64,000 bases of DNA from Eledone cirrhosa (lineage: Eukaryota): contig OZ024743.1 in the NCBI GenBank assembly GCA_964016885.1, positions 279,124,001 through 279,188,000 of the forward strand, written 5' to 3'. Both the position numbers and the translations under genes were made by a program. Position 1 is the stretch's first letter. Every line of letters starts with the position of its first letter. The notes under the pieces were generated by a model. The model saw nothing but the letters and a program-made list of their open reading frames with translations, did no database searches and had not been told where the DNA came from. Below, piece by piece: positions 6,504 to 47,413 of this stretch.

Positions 6504-6985
6504 TCATCTCCACTTTAAGAAAGAAGGTAGGAGGGGATTACGCATATCCTCCTCCACCCTCGTCTTCCATTTCAAGTGGAATTTAAAAAATAGGTGTGGA
6601 TTGTGTAGAAGAGAATTGTGCTTCTCTTCTGTCTTGTTAGTCGCATCCATCTCACAACCTCTTTCGCCACAGCCACCAGACAGGAACATTTTCCTGCCCT
6701 TCCCGGCCAGTAAAAGGTAGGGTTCGCTCTTCACGATAGAGTTGGTTGCTAGCCGAATCCGTTCTACACGCGATAATAGTTGCATGACAAATCTCCACAA
6801 GTCAGTAATATCCAGGTACAGGAGGAGTGCGTGCAGAACCATTTCTTCGCTCTGCTCGCATCTCAGACAGATCCGTCTTAAAGCATGTCCATGCCTAAAG
6901 AGTTTGTCTCGACTCCGCAGTGCTACCATGTAGCACTGTCAAGCCAGGAGTTTTCTGGATATAAACCATATTCCCTGGACCAAAC
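6504..6985 (-). mobile_element. Tx1/L1-clade LINE ORF2 C-terminal fragment (zf-RVT CCHC)
   Basis: RDKLFRHG..ICLRC..SEEMVLHALL; homologous to the ORF at 46781-47413. Confidence 0.8.
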
Positions 6986-27660: not shown

Positions 27661-27984
27661 TATTATTATTATTCTCTACATTCCTTACATCAAACTAAAA
27701 TATGTTGACAATCTTTTAATAATGTCTTCCTTGTGAAATGTGTGGTCTAGTTTTGCTTATTTAATGAATATTTCCAGCTTTACGCACCTAACTTCTGCAT
27801 GAACCCAGCCACCTAGCTGCTTTCCACTGCATATTGCACATTGAGCACATGCCTTTACGCTTTGGCTTCTAACTAATTCACCATTCTCTCCTCTCCTATC
27901 TCCTCTCCTATCTCCATCTCTCTCTTTATGATTGGTTACTCTTGAACTGTGTATACATATATGTGTGTGTTTATATACATACAT

Positions 27985-29516
27985 ATTTCCGCCCAACAAT
28001 AGGTATAGAAAAATCCTTAATAGGAACAATATTAAAATATCCTTCTCTACTACTCCTAACCTAGCAGACATCATAGGAACAACGAACCACAGTAAGATCA
28101 CCAAGACACAGCACCTTAGCACAGACGCACCTACAGCTGACAATAACTATATCGGTCTTAACGACTCCCTAGCAGCATCCAATAGTGCTGGCAACAGCCT
28201 CTACAGACGCAACCAGCATAACCGCGACATGACCGGGGAACTTGTAGGACATGACGTGCGGAATAATAATCGTACCACCGTAGTGGGTTATAATGATGCA
28301 AACGACAATGTTCACCTAATGATGTGAAGAAAATTTGTTAAAGTGGCATCAGAAATCATGTATTGAGCACTTAAAAATAGTGGTGCGGGAGCGTAGATAA
28401 CAACGTAGATAGCAATAATGATAGGCTTACCGTGGGAATTAGAAAGAACCGCGACAGAAATTGCAACTGCCGCGACAGGGGACGCTGCCCCCTTAGAGGA
28501 TAATGCTTGACTGATAGGGTTATATATAGGTGCACTGTAACTAGCCACAATAGCGTTAAACATTATATAGGGGCTACCTCTGGCCCGTTCAAAATTAGAT
28601 TTGGAACACATCTCCACTCTTTCACAAATAAGAAATTAAGACACTCCACTTCGCTCGCGGACTACATCACATCATTTAAAGACTTAAACATCAGCTTTCC
28701 ACGCACTGGGATATTGTCGGCAGGGCTGCACCGTACAACTTCAAGAGGGAGTGCTATCTTTGCCTCATGGAGCTCTACCACATCATAACTGTACCCCACC
28801 AGCTCATCAAGAGCAGAGCTGAAACGACGTTAAGCTGTACACATCGCTTAAAAATATCCTTCTTCAGATGGGATATGGATGAGGAGTTAAACCGTGTACC
28901 GGGTCTCCCTGCAACAAGCGTTAACACCCCTGCGGGCAGGCGCTGCAAAAAACATCCAGGAAACTAACCATGCATCCCAGACCCAGCTTCAAATGACCCA
29001 GGCGGGTAGGTGCAGAAAAACGAGCGTCTCAAAATAAGTGTTGATTACCTGACACTATGCGTATCGACAATGGTAAGGTTGTAACCACATCTTGTAACGG
29101 ATAAAACATTTGTCCGGGAAAGACTGCCCTAACACCGGCCAGAGTTACCTCCCTTGACCTACTGCAAAATTAAAACACGCTTTTTTGGCGAAGAATGCAC
29201 TATGACGTGAACTTACCCCCCAAAACACGTTCAGGGCCATGTAAGGAACACGTTTGGTTATGTATGCCCTTGAGAAGCCCAACCGGGCGAAACGTACGTA
29301 GGTGCTGTTTTAAATAAACATGTATTAACGGTCTGTTCTCCGATTTCTTACTTTTCCACGTGCTTACGATCTGCTAACTCTCTTGCCCACTAAATATTAA
29401 CACTTCTAATATTTAATACTGCCGGCACTAGTATTGAGCACCTTCTGTATACGCTATTTGGCAAATAACTACATGTATCACCTATCCTTCCTTTTTTTCT
29501 CTCTCTCGATACGTAA

Positions 29517-35857: not shown

Positions 35858-36385
35858 TGATAAGATGAAACTGTCCCTGAAAAGTTTGTTGGCGGTAGCG
35901 AACGCGTACATCGCGTCCGTCTTCTACTACTACCATCGTGCCTTGCCTTCGTTCGCACCTCACCAAATTGGAACGCCTGCTATTCAACTTCTTGTGGAAA
36001 GGACAGATTCTATTGAGGAGGCGCTCCATCTGCTGCCAGCACCCACTATACGGAGGGCCGAGCATCCCTTCGTTGATGATTTGTGGTGGGCATGTCCGCC
36101 GATCCTCCTGGAGCGTCTCTGGTCTTCGACGAAATCGTACTGGCCAGTCTATACCGGAGGAATTTCGAGCTGGGTATTTTGGATAACTTCCAAAAGTCCC
36201 TCTCTTGGCAATTGCTACCTGGGGGTACTACTGCCGGTTCGAGATAAACTCTACAGACCCGAAACTGCAGTCAGACGGACCAATCAGAGATGCGTGCAAA
36301 GCGACGAAACCCTCTGTAGGCACTCATTTAGTGTCCATGTATTCCTGACATGTGAGGGTATATCGAACAGCTGCTATCACACTTT
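35858..36385 (+). mobile_element. Tx1/L1-clade ORF2 fragment with internal deletion
   Basis: LERLLFNFLWKG...QHPLYGGPSIP joined to DNFQKS...LPVRDKLYR..RCVQSDET; same family as 46781-47413. Confidence 0.8.
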
Positions 36386-37794
36386 TAATGATCACACAAT
36401 AATTATTGCTGCTGGTAGCTTACATATTGACATAGCATTTTTGTTGAAATAGTGAAGCTATCTGTGTGATAAAACATCTTTTTCTGATAGAATGCTTGAT
36501 AACTATTTAAATATTATAGTAAATATAAATATTTAAATCAAATGTTATAGCGAGTATTTAACTTTATAGGAATAGATTACAGGAGGTTCAACTATTTTGG
36601 CATGATCTTGTAATGGAATTAGTGAAATCGCAGAACAGTTCATTAGATAAATCACATTTTCATCATTTTGTAGAGTTGCCTCAATAATAAATATTTTCAC
36701 TTAAAGAGTTCCTGTTAAACATCACATTTCAATTTAGTAGGTATTTAGTTATCTCCCTTTACAAGTCTTCATTGCATAGTTGATTCCAAGATTTGTTTAA
36801 GCTACTTGTTATCTTTCCTAAGCTTTTCGTGTAATGAGTCACATCTTTTTATCTCTATTCTCACATTCTAATCCTTCTTTCTACTTTATTCTCGACATCA
36901 ATCCTATTTAAACCGACGACACATGCTACATACGGTATTAACATTACCTGACTTTTCACTTATTTCATAAGCAAGTAAGGGAAACTTTGCCTGCTCACTC
37001 ATTTTACTAGAAACAACAACGGAATCTCCAAATTTTCCCCCAATAACAAACTAACATCTTATATAAAGAAAATACTGGTAACTGCTATCCATTACACGCA
37101 AATCGAGTGGAACTTTTATTTATCGATCACGAAAGTATGAAAGGCAAATACATTTGACTTCGGTTGTATTTAAACTTAGTGTGAAGAGATTAGAAACAAT
37201 TACCAAGGCATTTAATGCGACCTTCTGATTACAATTCGCCACCTATATTATTTTCAGCTTCCACGTATGTTATACTACACCATTGTGTAAACATAACTGT
37301 ATTTGAGTTTCACGTCGATAACATGCTTAAACATTAGGGATAGTTGTTATCTACATTAATTTCATGTCTGATTTATTTCCTAGTCTGTAAATTAGCAAAG
37401 GGATATCCGTCTCTGGCTTTCTGTGCTATGAGTTTAAACCACAACGAGATCAACTTGACCTTTTCATCCCCTCGTGTCTACAATTTCAATACTGAAATAG
37501 AGTTTCTCTTTTTCTCTCCCGCCTCACTCTATCGCTATTGTTACACCTGGCTCGTGACGAGCTCTACCATGTTTAAATACACAAAGAAAGCCGCATTTCG
37601 CGATCGTGCACCAACGACTCCATCAAGGGTTAAGGGGCCAATGATAAAGATTATTTATTTTCTAACATTTAACGGTGATAAGTGTTAAAAATTACCTTCT
37701 CCAACTTCAGTCCTTATTTCAAATACACCTTGCCATCTTAAAAATATGCTGTCCACTGGATAACGTAGTCACCAATATATAAGATTATTATTTT

Positions 37795-37972
37795 GGCAGT
37801 ATCGGTAGAGGGTCGGACGCCATGCCTTTCAGCATAGTTACGTCCCTTTACGATCTGAGTTCAAATCCCGCCGAGGTTGACTTTGCGTTTCATCCTTACG
37901 GGGTCGATAAAATAAAGTACCAGTAATGCACTTGGTAATTGCTGGCCTTGTGCCTAAAGTAGAAACAATTAT
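37795..37972 (+). mobile_element. Near-complete tRNA-type SINE
   Basis: B-box-like GAGTTCAAATCCC, conserved body, (ATT)-like tail; many related copies in the window. Confidence 0.85.
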
Positions 37973-40453
37973 TTAATGTTATATATTTTTACATGTGGAC
38001 TCGGTGAATTTGTTTATGCATTTCAATTTTTAGTGTGTGTTTTCATATAGCCTGTATAAATATGTTGAAAATTATTGATGTATCAATATAATATCCATGA
38101 AGAGATTTTTAGAACATACTGAAACGCTTCGCATGCTATTAGGTCAGCATCGCAAATAAATGAATTACGATTTAGCATAAATTTTATTTCAAAAATCTGT
38201 AACCTATAATTTGGTGTAGTATCTAACATAGTAAACACTTTAAACAACACTACAGGTAATATTGTCAACATAATTTCTTTCACATCAGATATATTTGCAT
38301 TAATAATCTTAAGAATTTTATCTCAGTTTTCACCAAAAGAAATCGTAAATAACCCAATTCCGCCAAACATTCAAGACAGTATTAACTTATGCCATGTCAA
38401 TGGCAAATACCTCGATAAGTAGTTTGTGCTTTGTGCCAGTTAAGTTGAATGAAAACAATGAATAACTTTATTTACGTCCAGCGGAACATTCCATTAAATA
38501 AAGGTTTACACAGCACAGATATTCATTAAGCATTCAGTGAAAGAAAACACTAAATCTATTGCAGCATGTTCCCAAACTAAAAGATAAATATGCTATGAAA
38601 TTACATATATTGATATTTGCTAAACCATAATTAGATAGTTTAAGGTTTTAAAACTTTAACAAGCCAAATATATTTTTTGTTTTCTTTTAAATAAATACTC
38701 CTTTGGTAATGTCATCAAAATAAGTACCTCGTAAGGATTTTTAACTTGAACGCAAGCGAGATACATTTTTCTTTAAAGGTGTATTTGCCACTCAAAACAA
38801 TCCCGAATCAGCATGATTCTTGATTAACGCTATGTGGCCGCAAACATTTATGGCATATCAGATATATAATTTATTTATTTTCATTTGTTTTTTCACATGA
38901 AGCTGATTGTAACAACTTCACTGCTTTGCAATTTTTCCATGTAATATATCGCACATATAATATTTTTGGCAATACAAAAAAAAATCATTATAATGGTTTT
39001 ACAGACTGAGCGAAAGCTTTGAGATACCTGTCCTGGCACTTGCTTTTTCTGAGCTAAATTTGCTTTACATATTTCTTCTAACAGTAAAATAAAGAGAAGG
39101 ATGTAACCAACCTTCGCATCCGTACATATTGCGCACCAGTCGTATCCATCGAATATATTCCTGTGTTTATCACATACCTAATTATCATCTGGACATGTTA
39201 TATCTATGATACAAGATAGTTTGCGTTCGTTGCAATTATCATATCAGATTTCCTGTGATCCATCTCATTGTCACACTATATCCCAAATCACACAGGATCT
39301 TTGCAATAACATTTTCAATAATGTCCTTGGGTTTATATTCGTACCTGATTTTTGCTCTATCAAGTCCTCTCTTGCTGCAAACTGCCTAGTTCTCTATTTT
39401 GACTACAATGCCGTGACGCCTCTTATATTCTTTCTGAGCTAGTCGTGCATGTCTATTGGTAATATGCCATACAGTTTCTCAACTATCACCACAAATTCTA
39501 CATTTATCACTTTCTAGCGTGTGGTTATTTGTGTTGGTACGAGTATATGTCAAATTTCAAATTTTCGCAATTCTTGTTAAGGCAACTAGTTAAATATATA
39601 CGAACCCACAACACAAACACACACACACACACAGACACACTTATATGTATATAATATATATACATATACCGGCACACATACACACACACACATATATATA
39701 TATTATATATATACATATACATGTACAAAGGCACACGCACACTCACACGCACACATATATATATACACATATATATATGTATATATATGCCCATACACCT
39801 ATCATCAGCTATATCTATTACACAACATTGCTTCTGTACGACGCCCGTTCTTTGATGTATGCCGCTTTGCCGCTTTTATATACTCGTGGTTCTTGTTTTC
39901 CGTTTATTCGTTAGCAATATCATTTTACTTTTATTCTTTTATTTTTGTGTTTCATGCTTCTGCTTTTTATTAGTATTCATATTGTTTATCTTGTTGGTTT
40001 AACTGCAATATCAGATAGCACCCGTCAACTTATCTCTTACATTCCTATTCCTATCACCCTTTTCATTTTAACAGACATCTCCACTTCTGTTCGGAAATCT
40101 GTGAAACTAAATAATCCTGGGTTGACATTTCAACAGGGAATTGTGTGCGTGCGGGTATGCGACTATATTTTAAGTGTGTGTGGCTATACTGTGCGTACAT
40201 GTGTGTGAGTGTTCGCGTGAGAGAGAGAGAGAGAAGCTTATGACTTCATGTGTCTGCGAGATTGATAGAGGGTGATGATAAATTGTCTGTTTACACACAT
40301 ACACACACACACACACACACACGCACATACACGCACACACACACACACACGCACATACACGCGCACACACACACACGCACACACACAACTCCCCCCCCCA
40401 CACAAATATATATATATATATATAAATATTGTTTTAGAGTAGTGACAGTCTCA

Positions 40454-40496
40454 CTTTGATAAGTATCAAAAATTATGAAACAGAGCTCTGTCAGCT
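40454..40496 (+). ncRNA. Hammerhead U3-A8 variant, copy 1 (stems I and II damaged)
   Basis: CT-TTGATAA-GTAT(CAAAAA)TTAT-GAAA-CAGAGCTCTG-TC-AGCT. Confidence 0.6.
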
Positions 40497-40771
40497 TTAT
40501 CTCCCCTGTTTGCTGAACATTTAAAGTAAGTGAGACTGTCACTACTCTAAAACAATAGCGTAAGGTCTTCGAAATGCTTTTAATTAAGCATACAGTGTAT
40601 AGCAAAATACATTATATATACATTCATATGTATATCGTTATTTCAGAACACCAATTTTAATTTTCAATTTCTGCTTGACCGGCAACCGCTCTGTATAATC
40701 AGTTCCTGATTATTACTAGAATTCTATAAGAATCAAACATTCATGATTTTCAGCAAACAGGTGGAGTAGTT

Positions 40772-40816
40772 AGCTTTGATAAGTACCAAACAGTACGAAA
40801 CAGAGCTCTGTCAGCT
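40772..40816 (+). ncRNA. Hammerhead U3-A8 variant, copy 2 (intact)
   Basis: AGCT-TTGATAA-GTAC(CAAACA)GTAC-GAAA-CAGAGCTCTG-TC-AGCT; 12-nt palindromic stem III; GUC site. Confidence 0.85.
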
Positions 40817-41096
40817 TTATCTCCCCTGTTTGCTTAAAATTTAAACTAAGTGAGACTGTCCCTACTCTAAAACAATAGCGTAAGGTCTTCGAAATGATTT
40901 TAATTAAGCATACAGTGTATTGCAAAATACACTATATTTACATTCATATATATATCGCTATTTCAGAACACCAATTTTAATTTTCAATTTCTGCTTGACC
41001 GGCAACCGCTCTCTGTATAATCAGTTCCTGATTATTACTAGCATTCTATAAGAATCAAACATTCATGATTTCAGCAAATAGGTGGAGTAGTTAGTT

Positions 41097-41141
41097 AGCT
41101 TTGATAAGTACCAAAAAGTACGAAACAGAGGTCTGTAAGCT
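41097..41141 (+). ncRNA. Hammerhead U3-A8 variant, copy 3
   Basis: AGCT-TTGATAA-GTAC(CAAAAA)GTAC-GAAA-CAGAGGTCTG-TA-AGCT. Confidence 0.8.
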
Positions 41142-41266
41142 TTATCTCCCCTGTTTGCTGAAAATTTAAAGTAAGTGAGACTATCACTACTCTAAAACAA
41201 TAACGTAAGGTCTTCGAAATGCTTTTAGTTAAGCATACAGTGTATTGCAAAATACACTATATATAC

Positions 41267-41310
<44 letters not shown>

Positions 41311-42124
41311 ATAGAGAAATTTATGTTAGCAAAAAGCCAACAATAATTCAGACATATAAGTGACTATAACATCAAGGTGAAACATTTTTAACGTAAGGTG
41401 TGGGATAAGTAATACAATCTCAATTCAAAACAAGTCACGCAGAAAAACTTTATCCTCAGACTTTGTGTAAGTTGGGGAAGAAAGCAATACAATCTTAACT
41501 CAAGATAAAATCAAGAAAAAATACTTAACCGTCAATTTGTGGAAAACTACAAATGCACTATATAGTCTTAAAAGACTATTTCACGAAGCTTTTCAGTGGG
41601 GTTAGTCACGTTTGGCGTAGATCTTCAGTAGTGCTCAATACATTGACTGCATAGGTGTGAGCTGTCACACACACACCATATACAGGCACTCCCATATATA
41701 AATATATATATATATATATAAATAGAGGCTTAGTAAAATTGAATCTTTGGCTGTGGACAAGCAAATTCGACCTACAATATGAATGAGTTAGCAAAGCACT
41801 CCTTAGAGTAATAACATACGTTTAAATAGCTTGACAAATTGAACATTGTGGTACGCAAAATCTAACACACAATACCAAAGTAACGAAAAAACTAACAGGT
41901 TGAAAAAATACACCTGGACAAATCAAACGTTATACGGTATTTTTTTGAAGCAGGTATTTTTAATACAGGTATTTTTTTAAAGCAAAGCATTGGCCCCCCC
42001 AAAATACTAGTGGGCCCTGCAATGCTACTGTGGGCCCTGCAATGTTACCCCGTGGGCATTCTGGAGTCCACTGGCCATTGGGCAACCTGGCAACGTGGCC
42101 AGTCCGCCACTCTGTGTGTGTGTG

Positions 42125-42193
<69 letters not shown>

Positions 42194-42358
42194 GTTTTAG
42201 GACTGGTGCTCTGAAATAGCGATGTTTACATAAATGTATGATTAGTACATTTGACAATAAACCGTATGTCTAATTAAAAACATTTAGAAGACCATACACT
42301 ATCAATTTTAAAGTAGTGACTATATCACTTACTTCTTTTCGGTGAAATAAGGGAGAGT

Positions 42359-42400
42359 AGCTGACAATCTGTTTCACACTGGTTGGCGTTCATGAGGGCC
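42359..42400 (-). ncRNA. Degenerate hammerhead (core CTCATGA)
   Basis: Minus strand reads GGCC-CTCATGA-ACGC(CAACCA)GTGT-GAAA-CAGATTG-TC-AGCT. Confidence 0.55.
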
Positions 42401-42750
42401 ACACACTCCCCTGTTTCCGCCGAAAATTATAGAAGCTCGATTCTTATAGAATTCCAGTAATAATCAGGAGCTGATTACACAGAGCGGTTGCCGGCAAACA
42501 TTAGGTATTAGTATTGGGGCTTCGAAATACCGATGTATACATGAATGTATGTATATATTTGGCAATATACCGTATGTTTTGCCAAATATACTATACACAC
42601 ATTCATGTATACATCGGTATTTCAGGGCCCCAATCCTAATACCTAATTTTTGAGGACCGGCAATCGCTCTGTATAACCAGCTCCTGATTATTACTGGAAT
42701 TCTATAAGAATCTAGCTTCTATAATTTCCGGCGGAAGCAGGGGATTTCGT

Positions 42751-42792
42751 GGCTCTGATGAACGCCAACCAGCGTGAAACAGACTGTCAGCT
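42751..42792 (+). ncRNA. Minimal type-I hammerhead, canonical core
   Basis: GGCT-CTGATGA-ACGC(CAACCA)GCGT-GAAA-CAGACTG-TC-AGCT. Confidence 0.85.
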
Positions 42793-42937
42793 TCTCTCCC
42801 TTCTTTCGTCGAAAAGAAGTAAGTGACATAATCACTACTTTAAAACCGATAGCGTATGGTCTTCTAAATGTTTTTAATTAAACATACGGTATATTGCCAA
42901 ATAAAGTATACATATATTCATCCACACACACACACAT

Positions 42938-42993
<56 letters not shown>

Positions 42994-43863: not shown

Positions 43864-44491
43864 GCAGTGAGACCATAATGGTTTCTTATATAGGCACAAG
43901 GCCGGCAATTTTGAGGGAAGGGAAAGTCGATTAAATCGACCTCAGTACGTTACTGGTTTATATTTTATCGCCCCCCCCCCCGCCCGTAAGGATGAAAGGC
44001 AAAGTTAACCTCGGGGAGATTTGAAATGAGATCATAAAGGGCCATAACTCTATGCTGCAAAGCATGGTGTCCGACTCTCTACCGATACTACCAATCCACC
44101 GCCCTGCAGTGAGGCCATAATAATTACTTTTGACACGAGGGCAGCAATTACTCCAGTGTATTACTGGTACTTTATTTTATCGACCTCGTAAGGATGAAAG
44201 GCAAAATTAACCCGGCTGGATTTGAACTCAGAATGGAAAGGACTGTAACTCTATGCGTCAAAGCATGGCGTCCGCAGTGTGACCATAATAATAGTTACTT
44301 ATATAGGCACAAGGCCAGTAATTTTGGGGGAGGGGAAAGTCGATTAAATCGACCCAGTGCGTCACTGGTACTTTATTTTATCGACTCCATAAGGATGAAA
44401 GGCAAAGTTAACCTCGGCGGGATTTGAGCTCAGATCATAAAGAGCCGTAACTCTATGCGTCAAAGCATGGCGTCCGCAGTGAGAACATAAT
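43864..44491 (-). mobile_element. Three SINE copies in tandem, punctuated by a 16-bp motif
   Basis: GCAGTGAGACCATAAT-like motif at 43864, 44106, 44274 and 44476; each interval holds AGGATGAAAGGCAAA...ATTTGA. Confidence 0.88.
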
Positions 44492-44818: not shown

Positions 44819-44899
<81 letters not shown>

Positions 44900-44948
44900 T
44901 TAAGCCAAATATGTCAAATTTGGCTTCGTTTATTATAAATTAAAAATT

Positions 44949-45003
44949 ACTGCTATATATATTTCGGTGACAGCCATCATTGGCTGTGACCTCATCAGGC
45001 AGT
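44949..45003 (-). ncRNA. Minimal type-I hammerhead
   Basis: Minus strand reads ACTGC-CTGATGA-GGTCACAGCCA(ATGA)TGGCTGTCACC-GAAA-TATATA-TA-GCAGT. Confidence 0.88.
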
Positions 45004-45100
45004 CCGAATTGGTATGGAAAAGACAGGTACACATGTTGTTGAAGTGTATTTTACTCCGTCAATACATACATGCGTACCTGTCTTTTCCACACCAATTCGG

Positions 45101-45155
45101 AATGCCTGAAGAGGTCACAGCCAATGATGGCTGTCACCGAAATATATATCGTCGT
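45101..45155 (+). ncRNA. Hammerhead with decayed stem I
   Basis: AATGC-CTGAAGA-GGTCACAGCCA(ATGA)TGGCTGTCACC-GAAA-TATATA-TC-GTCGT. Confidence 0.65.
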
Positions 45156-45874
45156 AATTTTTAATTTATAATAAACCAAGCCTAATTTTACATATTTGAC
45201 TTAATTATTTTACATTACTTCGCAGTAAACAAACCAACCTTCGTACTTCGTCGAGTGCTCCAATCTGCATACTTGGGTGTCGGTAAACAACCAACATATA
45301 CTCAATATATAATATATACAGTATATATATTGTTCAAGGAGACAACAAACAGAGGTATAAAAATGTTATTACTTTTACGCTTTATATTGGAAAGAGGAAA
45401 GAAAGTTCGACGTGTCTGGCCCTTCTTCAAGAGTACAAAATAGAAACAGGATTACAATGGAGAAACAGAAAAAGGTCCAATAAACAAAACGAAAATGAAG
45501 CGGGAAAACAAGAGAACCATAAGGTTGTCTTGGTAACAAGTAAGAACGCAAAGTGGAGTGTGTGTGTAATCGTATCGTTATATATGTGAGTGTAAGTGTA
45601 AGTTTAAATGTGTGTGATGTTAAAGGTAAAATGTGTAAAGTAACAAAGATAGTGATGTATGTGCATATCCATGTGTTAGAGGTAGTGGACATGTATGTGT
45701 GAGTGAATGTAAGTTTCAATGTGTGTACTGTTTATGTACGTTGAAATAATTTTGTGTGCGTGTATAAAGTTTCGCTAGTGTAGCGTATGACCGTTAGAAG
45801 AGTGAATTAGTATGTGTGAGTATATATATAATCAACACCATAAACACAGTGCTAGTATATCTAAGAACTGACTA

Positions 45875-45930
45875 ACTGCCTGATGAGGTCATAGCCACTC
45901 AATGGCTATCATCGAAATATATATAGCAGT
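45875..45930 (+). ncRNA. Minimal type-I hammerhead, covarying paralog of 44949-45003
   Basis: ACTGC-CTGATGA-GGTCATAGCCA(CTCAA)TGGCTATCATC-GAAA-TATATA-TA-GCAGT, followed by AATAAA. Confidence 0.85.
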
Positions 45931-46671: not shown

Positions 46672-47413
46672 ATATTTCTTTATTAGCCACAGGGGCACAA
46701 CAGAAGGGGACAAATACAAAGGGGGAAGTTTATATACAATAAAAACGTGTAAAATGTTATCACAAATGGAATTTAAAAAGTTAGTCGATTTTCCCCAATA
46801 GAGGGAGACAGTTTATATGGGTAACACATACCCCCGAAAAAAAATGTGCAACCCTCATCTCCAGGAGTACGAAGAGCTTGTACTCTTTTCCTCTCCTCCT
46901 CCTTTTCCTCAACCTACAGGCTGATATTCTCGCCACTTTCACCCACCTTTCATAAAACTTGCTGGGGTACAGCACCTCTCTCTCCCTCCTGATTCTTCTT
47001 CCAAAGTGGTATTCGAAAAAAAGAATCAGTTGTTGGCCGGAGAGAAAGGTGACTGACCTCAGCCCTTTCAACCTTGTCCACCATACAACCTCTTTCGCCA
47101 TAGCTATCACACAAAGGAAAACCGCCTCTCCTTCGTTTTTGAAGGAGGGTGGCGGTTTGATCATGACAATGGACTCGGTGGTCAACTGGATTGGTCCCAC
47201 CCGCGACAATAGTCGTTCTACATAGCCCCACAGGTCAGTGACGCCCGGGCAGTGTATGAATGCGTGCGCGACGGTTTCTTCGTCTCGCACGCACCTCGGA
47301 CAGATCTTTTTTGCAGGGTCCCTGCCCGGGCGCCCATGTCTGTAGAGCTTGTCTCGAACTGGTAGAGCTCCTCGGTAGCACTGCCAGGCCAGGGACTTTT
47401 GGAAGTTGTCCAT
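46672..47413 (-). mobile_element. 5'-truncated Tx1/L1-clade LINE with 3' UTR, flanked by (GATA)n
   Basis: ORF 46781-47413 WQCYRGALPVRDKL..CPRC...ETVAHAFIHCP (zf-RVT); AATAAA then a (TATC)n tail on the minus strand. Confidence 0.88.

Follow-up and report, generated by a model that had tools for sequence, protein, structure and literature searches.

A palindromic repeat in Eledone cirrhosa as a probable insertion of a hammerhead retrozyme, with paired changes across the subfamilies of its family

The palindrome at 42191-42921 of the window (the whole 64,000-nt stretch of contig OZ024743.1 analyzed here) is very probably one insertion of a hammerhead retrozyme of about 315 nt, non-coding, non-autonomous and mobilized by Penelope-like elements (PLE), whose subfamilies would have been founded by RNAs that kept the ribozyme fold. 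The family is a retrozyme of a known class and an ordinary member of it, as reflected by its PLE-type insertion and by a core covariation that had already been published. It bears out the known point that retrozyme and PLE hammerheads tolerate U3-A8 and maintain their stems through compensatory substitutions.

Layout of the palindrome and of the neighboring array

The features considered in this work are the following (positions in the window; the basis of each assignment is given in brackets where there is one):

40426-41275, plus strand: separate insertion, subfamily A2, U3-A8 core (30-nt inverted piece and about 2.6 tandem units)
42113-42190, no strand: TG/CA/TA microsatellite, left target flank (sequence)
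42191-42577, minus strand: left arm, about 1.2 retrozyme units, subfamily D2 (8.8% from the D2 consensus)
42191-42269, minus strand: terminal redundancy of the left arm, repeating 42502-42577 at 81% over 79 nt (alignment)
42359-42400, minus strand: left-arm type I hammerhead, defective (sequence, alignment)
42579-42921, plus strand: right arm, about 1.1 units, subfamily D2 (4.2% from the D2 consensus)
42729-42811, plus strand: extended stem I around the hammerhead, 42729-42745 paired with 42794-42811 (fold)
42751-42792, plus strand: right-arm type I hammerhead (motif scan, alignment, pair counts)
42922-42990, no strand: CA/TA microsatellite, right target flank (sequence)

The palindrome is a head-to-head double copy between the two microsatellites, each arm coming from a repeat of about 315 nt, with an identity between arms of 86-87% over about 345 nt. 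The inverted arms 42223-42494 and 42657-42928 were 87% complementary and the inner segment (42495-42555 and 42592-42652) 90%. The left arm, read from 42577 to 42191 on the minus strand, ends at the long 3' end and is fused to the TA/CA microsatellite; the right arm ends at the short 3' end, followed by (CA)n(TA)n. The redundant outer end of the left arm includes a "tail" of about 27 nt that is absent from the right arm. A sequence-only reading of this DNA had seen here the start of a second unit (about 42200-42270 resembling about 42515-42577), and the alignment confirmed the repetition; since the left arm is long-ended under the long-plus-short rule described below, this start corresponds to read-through plus the PLE tail. 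No reading frame of at least 130 aa overlapped 42191-42921, and the GC content of the surrounding 2-kb bin was 37.8%.

No private mutation was common to both arms, and the left arm had about twice the divergence of the right one from the consensus (21-23 vs. 10-11 changes). Hyper-editing, of the A-to-I or any other type, was rejected as the cause of this excess, the mutation spectrum being ordinary, dominated by C-to-T and G-to-A and with no excess of A-to-G. In the inverted pairs L001, L011, L014, L063, L087, and L123 one arm was also often around twofold more diverged, which is partly an effect of ascertainment.

In fold predictions a read-through transcript of the palindrome paired arm on arm (-465 kcal/mol), with every hammerhead pair at probability 0. 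Each strand carries a single hammerhead, so that no monomer could be released from this locus, and the two consecutive complete hammerheads that define an active copy in the available text of a 2026 preprint (10.64898/2026.07.22.740005) are lacking. Given the single hammerhead per strand, the mutation of the left one and the predicted folding of arm on arm, this copy is likely dead or inactive as an insertion. The short 3' end (42593-42611 and its homologues) lay within a predicted hairpin with an AC-rich loop, resembling the AC-rich stem-loop at which, in the available part of PMC11167929, the anole PLE begins reverse transcription.

The neighboring array, about 0.9 kb away, contains hammerheads at 40456 (5'-truncated), 40776, and 41101. 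The right arm of the palindrome aligned with 40602-40947 at 74.8% identity over 349 nt (E 3e-57) and with 40920-41272 at 73.8%, and both arms showed 72-75% identity to the array unit; the earlier claim of homology with the 40426-41270 unit was thus upheld. It had also called the palindrome a sister subfamily, which did not hold. D2 and A2 stand at opposite ends of a ladder that comprises about 15 subfamilies, and because their consensuses are only 78% identical, with at least seven intermediate subfamilies between them, sequence comparison identifies the palindrome and the array as two independent insertions from opposite ends of the family.

Hammerhead motifs

The right-arm hammerhead reads GGCT-CTGATGA-ACGC-CAACCA-GCGT-GAAA-CAGACTG-TC-AGCT, with C3 at 42755. 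Stem I is GGCU/AGCU, the core CUGAUGA occupies 42755-42761, and stem II is ACGC/GCGU, with A10.1-U11.1 as closing pair and followed by GAAA; stem III is the palindromic ACAG-A-CUGU and the cut is predicted after C42788 (GUC). All the letters of a type I core are present (C3 U4 G5 A6 N7 G8 A9, G12 A13 A14, A15.1-U16.1, and H17). In the left arm the change of G5 to C at 42394 gives CUCAUGA, which departs from that core; stem II is ACGC/GUGU, with one G-U pair, and the cut site would fall between 42363 and 42362. The array hammerhead reads TAGCT-TTGATAA-GTAC-CAAACA-GTAC-GAAA-CAGAGCTCTG-TC-AGCT.

Both motifs occupied the same alignment columns, as the sequence-only reading had proposed to check, CTGATGA-ACGC-CAACCA-GCGT-GAAA (42755-42779) matching TTGATAA-GTAC-CAAACA-GTAC-GAAA (40776) column for column. 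Its comparison of CTGATGA-ACGC/GCGT with TTGATAA-GTAC/GTAC was correct for the right arm and wrong for the left one (CTCATGA, ACGC/GTGT). Similarly, the "canonical core" it assigned to the palindrome describes the CUGAUGA and GAAA of the right arm, but neither the left arm, nor the A10.1-U11.1 closing pair, nor a stem III that is 3 nt shorter in D2 than in the array. The G10.1-C11.1 pair, replaced in D2 by A10.1-U11.1 and present in the subfamily of the array, is described as highly conserved at stem II in the accessible text of PMC4209133; a partial literature search found no paper on A10.1-U11.1.

Three helices with stem I open were found across 30 copies (96.6% of 385 cells paired), and the extended stem I displayed compensatory changes between subfamilies (pairs 70-153, 71-152, and 73-150). 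Loop 2 (CAANNA) and a bulge in stem I, as candidate partners of a loop 1-loop 2 tertiary contact, are reminiscent of the Schistosoma ribozyme. In both subfamilies thermodynamic folds predicted stem II (p about 1) but gave the active-form stems I and III a p of 0.01 or less; monomer circles were more stable than shuffles (z -4.3 and -6.2; 60 shuffles). As a monomer, stem III of D2 would have to form with 3 bp and a 3-nt loop. The energy model gave +2.1 kcal/mol for its monomer hairpin vs. -1.8 in the array, and -6.9 vs. -20.1 kcal/mol, respectively, for the self-duplex. Stem III was self-complementary at every length across subfamilies, and this palindromic form fits cleavage as a dimer, to which such a stem is suited according to the available text of PMC4209133, with axolotl data in the available part of PMC7229834. 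Rfam models at gathering thresholds matched nothing in the 64-kb window, a result that is uninformative as the hammerhead motif is plain by eye.

Other repeats were noticed in the window and elsewhere. A second hammerhead family at 44894-45210 and 45875-45930 formed an inverted pair with 143-nt arms (92%); CTGATGA lies at 44998 on the minus strand, the plus strand has a decayed copy near 45107, and a further copy is at 45880. This second family has a long stem II, a palindromic TATATA stem III, and a relative in L195. Further short hammerhead repeats of unrelated sequence appeared at L186:685, L190:6713, L199:6266, L188:5986, and L193:858, three with (TA)n as a flank or at their end. A SINE-like repeat of about 200 bp was present as three tandem copies and dispersed relatives (43875-44476, 37096-37155, and 37836-37936), and the fragments 6611-6956, 27971-28874, 35932-36379, and 46970-47413 of the window matched retroelement reading frames present in L185 by tblastn.

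Size and subfamilies of the family

In the 3.0-Gb genome, a 30-mer near the 3' end of the unit matched exactly at least 5872 times, one lying upstream of the ribozyme at least 2476 times, and the hammerhead-anchored patterns had at least 3069 matches in all. Each reversed control gave 0 against these thousands of matches, which indicated that the repeat family is not a product of chance. Unit lengths of 315 and 320 nt, together with the absence of coding capacity, fall within the range of non-LTR retrozymes (about 170-400 nt, low GC). A partial search, of papers alone, found no description of the family, which is weak evidence.

From loci L001-L150 we collected 284 anchored candidates. The greater part of the unit was present in 198 of them, and removal of duplicates left 187; 75 partial copies were added for consensus building only. 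Fifteen subfamilies were set by clade and diagnostic letters, four of them resting on 2-3 copies each. The subfamily tree was ladder-like and was built without outgroup, so that the ladder carries no direction of change. U3-A8 occurred in six subfamilies (A1-A5) and C3-G8 in nine (B, C, and D).

Paired changes across subfamilies

Positions 3 and 8 of the hammerhead form a Watson-Crick tertiary pair of the core. CUGAUGA and UUGAUAA differ by a joint change at these positions (C3-G8 vs. U3-A8), and among the anchored genome matches C3-G8 was counted 1748 times and U3-A8 1225 times, with C3-A8 (50) and U3-G8 (46) adding up to 96 mismatched copies out of 3069. The mismatched copies were found on ordinary subfamily backgrounds, as expected of single later mutations. 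On the subfamily tree the swap was one event; the genome counts therefore reflect linkage and not repeated selection. The available text of PMC11167929 reports loss and rescue through C3G/G8C, and natural C3-G8/U3-A8 covariation was already known from about 1300 hits in PLE hammerheads of Schistosoma (PMC4209133, available part).

In 30 chosen copies, five of 13 pairs, namely 3-8 and the four that make up stem II, presented changes on both sides, in 40 cells; slid registers gave 0 to 1 double-changed pair, 0 to 7 cells, and at most 40% pairing. Stem II appeared as GUAC/GUAC, GCAC/GUGC, GCAU/AUGC, AUAC/GUAU, ACAC/GUGU, and ACGC/GCGU, and swaps between A-U and G-C occurred too in the extended stem I, whose pairs were picked by us from the sequences themselves, and in two small hairpins near the 3' end. 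With the homologous columns, these double changes sustain the earlier proposal of one family with conserved RNA structure. In eight of the 15 consensuses A-U or U.U took the place of G10.1-C11.1; U.U was found in four (B3, C1a, C3, and D1) and alternated with A-U along the ladder. The cut site of D1 and C3 was, in addition, GUU. The core displayed 0 changes at 9 positions vs. 52 at 154 positions outside, an invariance that follows in part from the use of hammerhead motifs as anchors in collecting the copies.

Covariation was evaluated in the 187 copies with an R-scape-like test written for this analysis (G-test with APC, 30 parsimony null alignments on the tree), and the check proposed in the sequence-only reading had a divided outcome. 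Three of 24 named pairs passed the tree-aware null, namely 10.2-11.2 (E 0.0007), 3-8 (E 0.006), and 10.3-11.3 (E 0.04), with 10.1-11.1 and one stem I extension pair at E 0.10; none of the 34,716 column pairs passed the all-pairs test (best E 0.95, for 10.2-11.2).

The covariation could be mere co-inheritance of subfamily-diagnostic letters, with the ribozyme as a passenger no longer under selection. The failure of every pair in the all-pairs test, the single 3-8 event and the unpaired diagnostic columns, which reached G scores about as high as the 3-8 pair, agree with such a reading, and the U.U of the four consensuses and the shrinking of stem III towards D2 could be decay. We nevertheless consider it unlikely. 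Co-inheritance predicts no complementarity, whereas the 11 variable pairs were 95.7% paired. In a null of random pairs with matching initial complementarity and as many changes, the value was 72.8 ± 6.3%, and none of 5000 draws reached that of the real pairs. Moreover, 10.2-11.2, the top-scoring pair overall, switched more than once, and stem III kept its self-complementarity at all lengths. In subfamily consensuses 289 of 296 cells were paired over 20 pairs; private mutations of individual copies broke pairing 203 times and kept it 118 times. Taken as sequence evidence resting on perhaps ten independent events, these data indicate that the hammerhead structure is conserved in the family, and the paired changes across subfamilies likely reflect selection on the RNA fold.

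Insertion architecture

Architecture was analyzed in 80 insertions (137 arms) chosen by a pattern of the 3' region. Fixed 3' ends were present in 114 of the 137 arms, 59 short and 55 long, about 27 nt apart (about 141-143 and 168-172 nt past the cut site, respectively), and (TA)4 or more directly followed 92 of these 114 arms. The 5' ends were scattered, reflecting 5' truncation, and 39 arms were longer than one unit, all of them running on into the same repeat unit. Ten of the 137 arms spanned two cut sites, so that tandem hammerheads, a mark of non-LTR retrozymes, exist at the level of the family. Only three of 137 arms had 5' ends within 3 nt of the cut site, with no run-off peak; the lack of a pile-up there argues against cleaved linear RNA as the usual template.

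Forty-nine of the 80 insertions were head-to-head, none was tail-to-tail, and 31 had a single arm. Among 35 palindromes scorable for both ends, 33 were long plus short, two short plus short and none long plus long (binomial p about 2e-8 vs. even choice), and long plus short was found in 53 of 57 in a wider, overlapping set; the palindrome at 42191-42921 obeys this rule, with a long left arm and a short right one. Both arms belonged to the same subfamily group in 59 of the 60 confidently typed pairs (out of 78) vs. 30% expected, and chimeric palindromes from two subfamilies were discarded as an origin, with only one case among the 60. All features of PLE-type insertion were found, namely truncated 5' ends, partly tandem units, a 5' copy in inverse orientation, a tail on one side, and a microsatellite as target. 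The available text of Craig et al. (2021, PMC8557442) describes PLE insertions with incomplete tandem repeats, inversion of the 5' copy, one end bearing a tail of 30-40 bp, and a bias towards (TA)n, and that of Frangieh et al. (PMC11167929) maps the tail to two internal start sites of reverse transcription, with both target strands cut and extended, and reports hammerhead cleavage to be dispensable in vitro for insertion by the anole PLE.

Same-strand tandem hammerheads about 320 nt apart were observed by eye as nine pairs among the first 100 U3-A8 matches vs. 0 for C3-G8; in the 3'-anchored sample, arms spanning two cut sites were nine of 84 nearer the A query and one of 53 nearer the D query. 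The U3-A8 excess could reflect slower cleavage or later expansion of arrays.

Candidate helper elements

The genome has many GIY-YIG elements, including two long ORFs with both RT and GIY-YIG, and the repeats of the RT plus GIY-YIG elements themselves carry other hammerheads and end in (TA)n. No terminal repeat matching the unit was found in 50 GIY-YIG loci (50 of 150 scored matches, from 10,596 first-look candidates), and comparison of 30 free 5' flanks with one another gave two matching pairs, neither of which pointed to a shared position in the unit. This absence of a matching PLE repeat, together with free 5' flanks lacking a fixed common sequence, suggested that the unit is non-autonomous. 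Weak local alignments between the unit and pseudo-LTRs (pLTR; scores 25-32, just above shuffles) were rejected as AT-rich noise. Matches of PLE ORFs near family copies by tblastn (L016, L093, L106, L140, and L149) had no common junction; by eye, a TA tract separated family copy and PLE in L149 and L152, and the copy in L152 is inserted into the TA tract behind another PLE.

An autonomous PLE was located at L181:952-5931 (G000:C1:145870000-145877500), with two pLTRs 4979 bp apart and an ORF of 938 aa with RT and GIY-YIG. This type, also found in L182, L186, L190, and L192, has a U3-A8 hammerhead (TTGAAAA), and its long 3' end has TTCTAATA in common with the A-type unit. A second autonomous family (L152, L175) carries TTGATAA, also U3-A8. 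On weak evidence, both families are put forward as candidate helpers.

The unit might instead be a solo pLTR of an autonomous PLE and not a stand-alone retrozyme, which we regard as quite improbable. The PLE insertion signature is there; pLTRs of PLEs carry type I hammerheads, including U3-A8 (PMC4209133 in its available text, and the L181 and L175 families), and the preprint 10.64898/2026.07.22.740005, in the part available, derives animal retrozymes from pLTRs. Against it, what followed in each of the 39 over-length arms was the same unit again, no match among the 30 free 5' flanks pointed to a common unit position, and the 50 GIY-YIG loci gave no pLTR match, the only one, L152, being the insertion behind another PLE. 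A DNA-born palindrome, by fold-back or local inverted duplication of the array, or as a MITE-like or hairpin element, has hardly any probability, for in spite of the long inverted arms and the related array about 0.9 kb away the palindrome is 78% identical to the subfamily of the array and 96% to its own dispersed subfamily, its arms share 0 private mutations and have unequal fixed ends with variable junctions, and single-arm copies are common (31/80).

Proposed origin and significance

For a PLE-mobilized, non-autonomous retrozyme we propose the following origin. Source loci with two tandem hammerheads would have given multimeric RNA that cleaved itself, probably as a dimer in view of the palindromic stem III; this RNA may have circularized or remained multimeric, the template being either a circle or an uncleaved multimer. 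The RT-endonuclease of an autonomous PLE likely carried out the insertion into the TA/CA microsatellite: it would have cut both target strands and primed one cDNA from each. These cDNAs would have begun at two internal points of the RNA, to be joined head to head afterwards. Only RNAs keeping the fold would have gone on to found subfamilies, with inserted copies decaying, and it is because founding RNAs had to keep the fold that changes at C3-G8/U3-A8, stem II, and stem I would have become fixed in pairs.

More tentatively, and with doubt prevailing, the family may be a natural mutational series of the hammerhead within one genome, and its palindromes a record of a dimeric PLE enzyme that primes the two strands at two fixed start sites of the RNA. 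If so, the series would span C3-G8/U3-A8, then G-C, A-U, and U.U at 10.1-11.1, and a stem III loop reduced by 3 nt towards obligatory dimer cleavage, and there would be in vivo a rule assigning strand to priming site that was not observed in vitro. The ladder of about 15 subfamilies offers natural variants for relating pairs 3-8 and 10.1-11.1 and the length of stem III to cleavage rate and dimer dependence, and the near-strict long-plus-short rule constrains how PLEs make inverted insertions.

Comparison with known systems

The comparisons below refer to the available parts of the cited sources. As in metazoan non-LTR retrozymes (Cervera and de la Pena 2020, PMC7229834; Li, Clavereau and Pollet 2026), the unit is short, AT-rich and non-coding, with one type I hammerhead, it occurs from monomers to multimers with autonomous PLEs alongside, and a circular RNA template is proposed. 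Unlike them, the family consists mostly of dispersed insertions of 1-2 units, 49 of 80 being head-to-head palindromes, and the palindrome studied lacks two tandem intact hammerheads.

The C3-G8/U3-A8 covariation and a palindromic helix III suited to dimers are shared with the U3-A8 PLE hammerhead Cercyon of Schistosoma mansoni (PMC4209133), and consensus families with compensatory changes and dual motifs on opposite strands with PLE-borne hammerheads in general (PMC4209133). In contrast to the latter, the family has a stem II of 4 bp, no extra nucleotide after A9, a G10.1-C11.1 pair that is often replaced, and a long extended stem I.

With PLE insertions (PMC8557442; anole Poseidon PAc, PMC11167929) the family has in common 5' truncation, partly tandem units, inversion of the 5' copy, a single tailed end, insertion into microsatellites, and two internal start sites of reverse transcription, whereas it has no ORF and its tail is of about 27 nt instead of 30-40 (PMC8557442). 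For Poseidon PAc in vitro the start site was equal on both strands (PMC11167929), in contrast with the 33 of 35 long-plus-short pairs obtained here. Finally, copies of one family that keep the core while their stems vary in a compensatory way are also known from the hammerhead of the Dolichopoda pDo500 satellite (PMC2837043), which is a satellite of about 500 bp compared across species, whereas the present family is dispersed within one genome.
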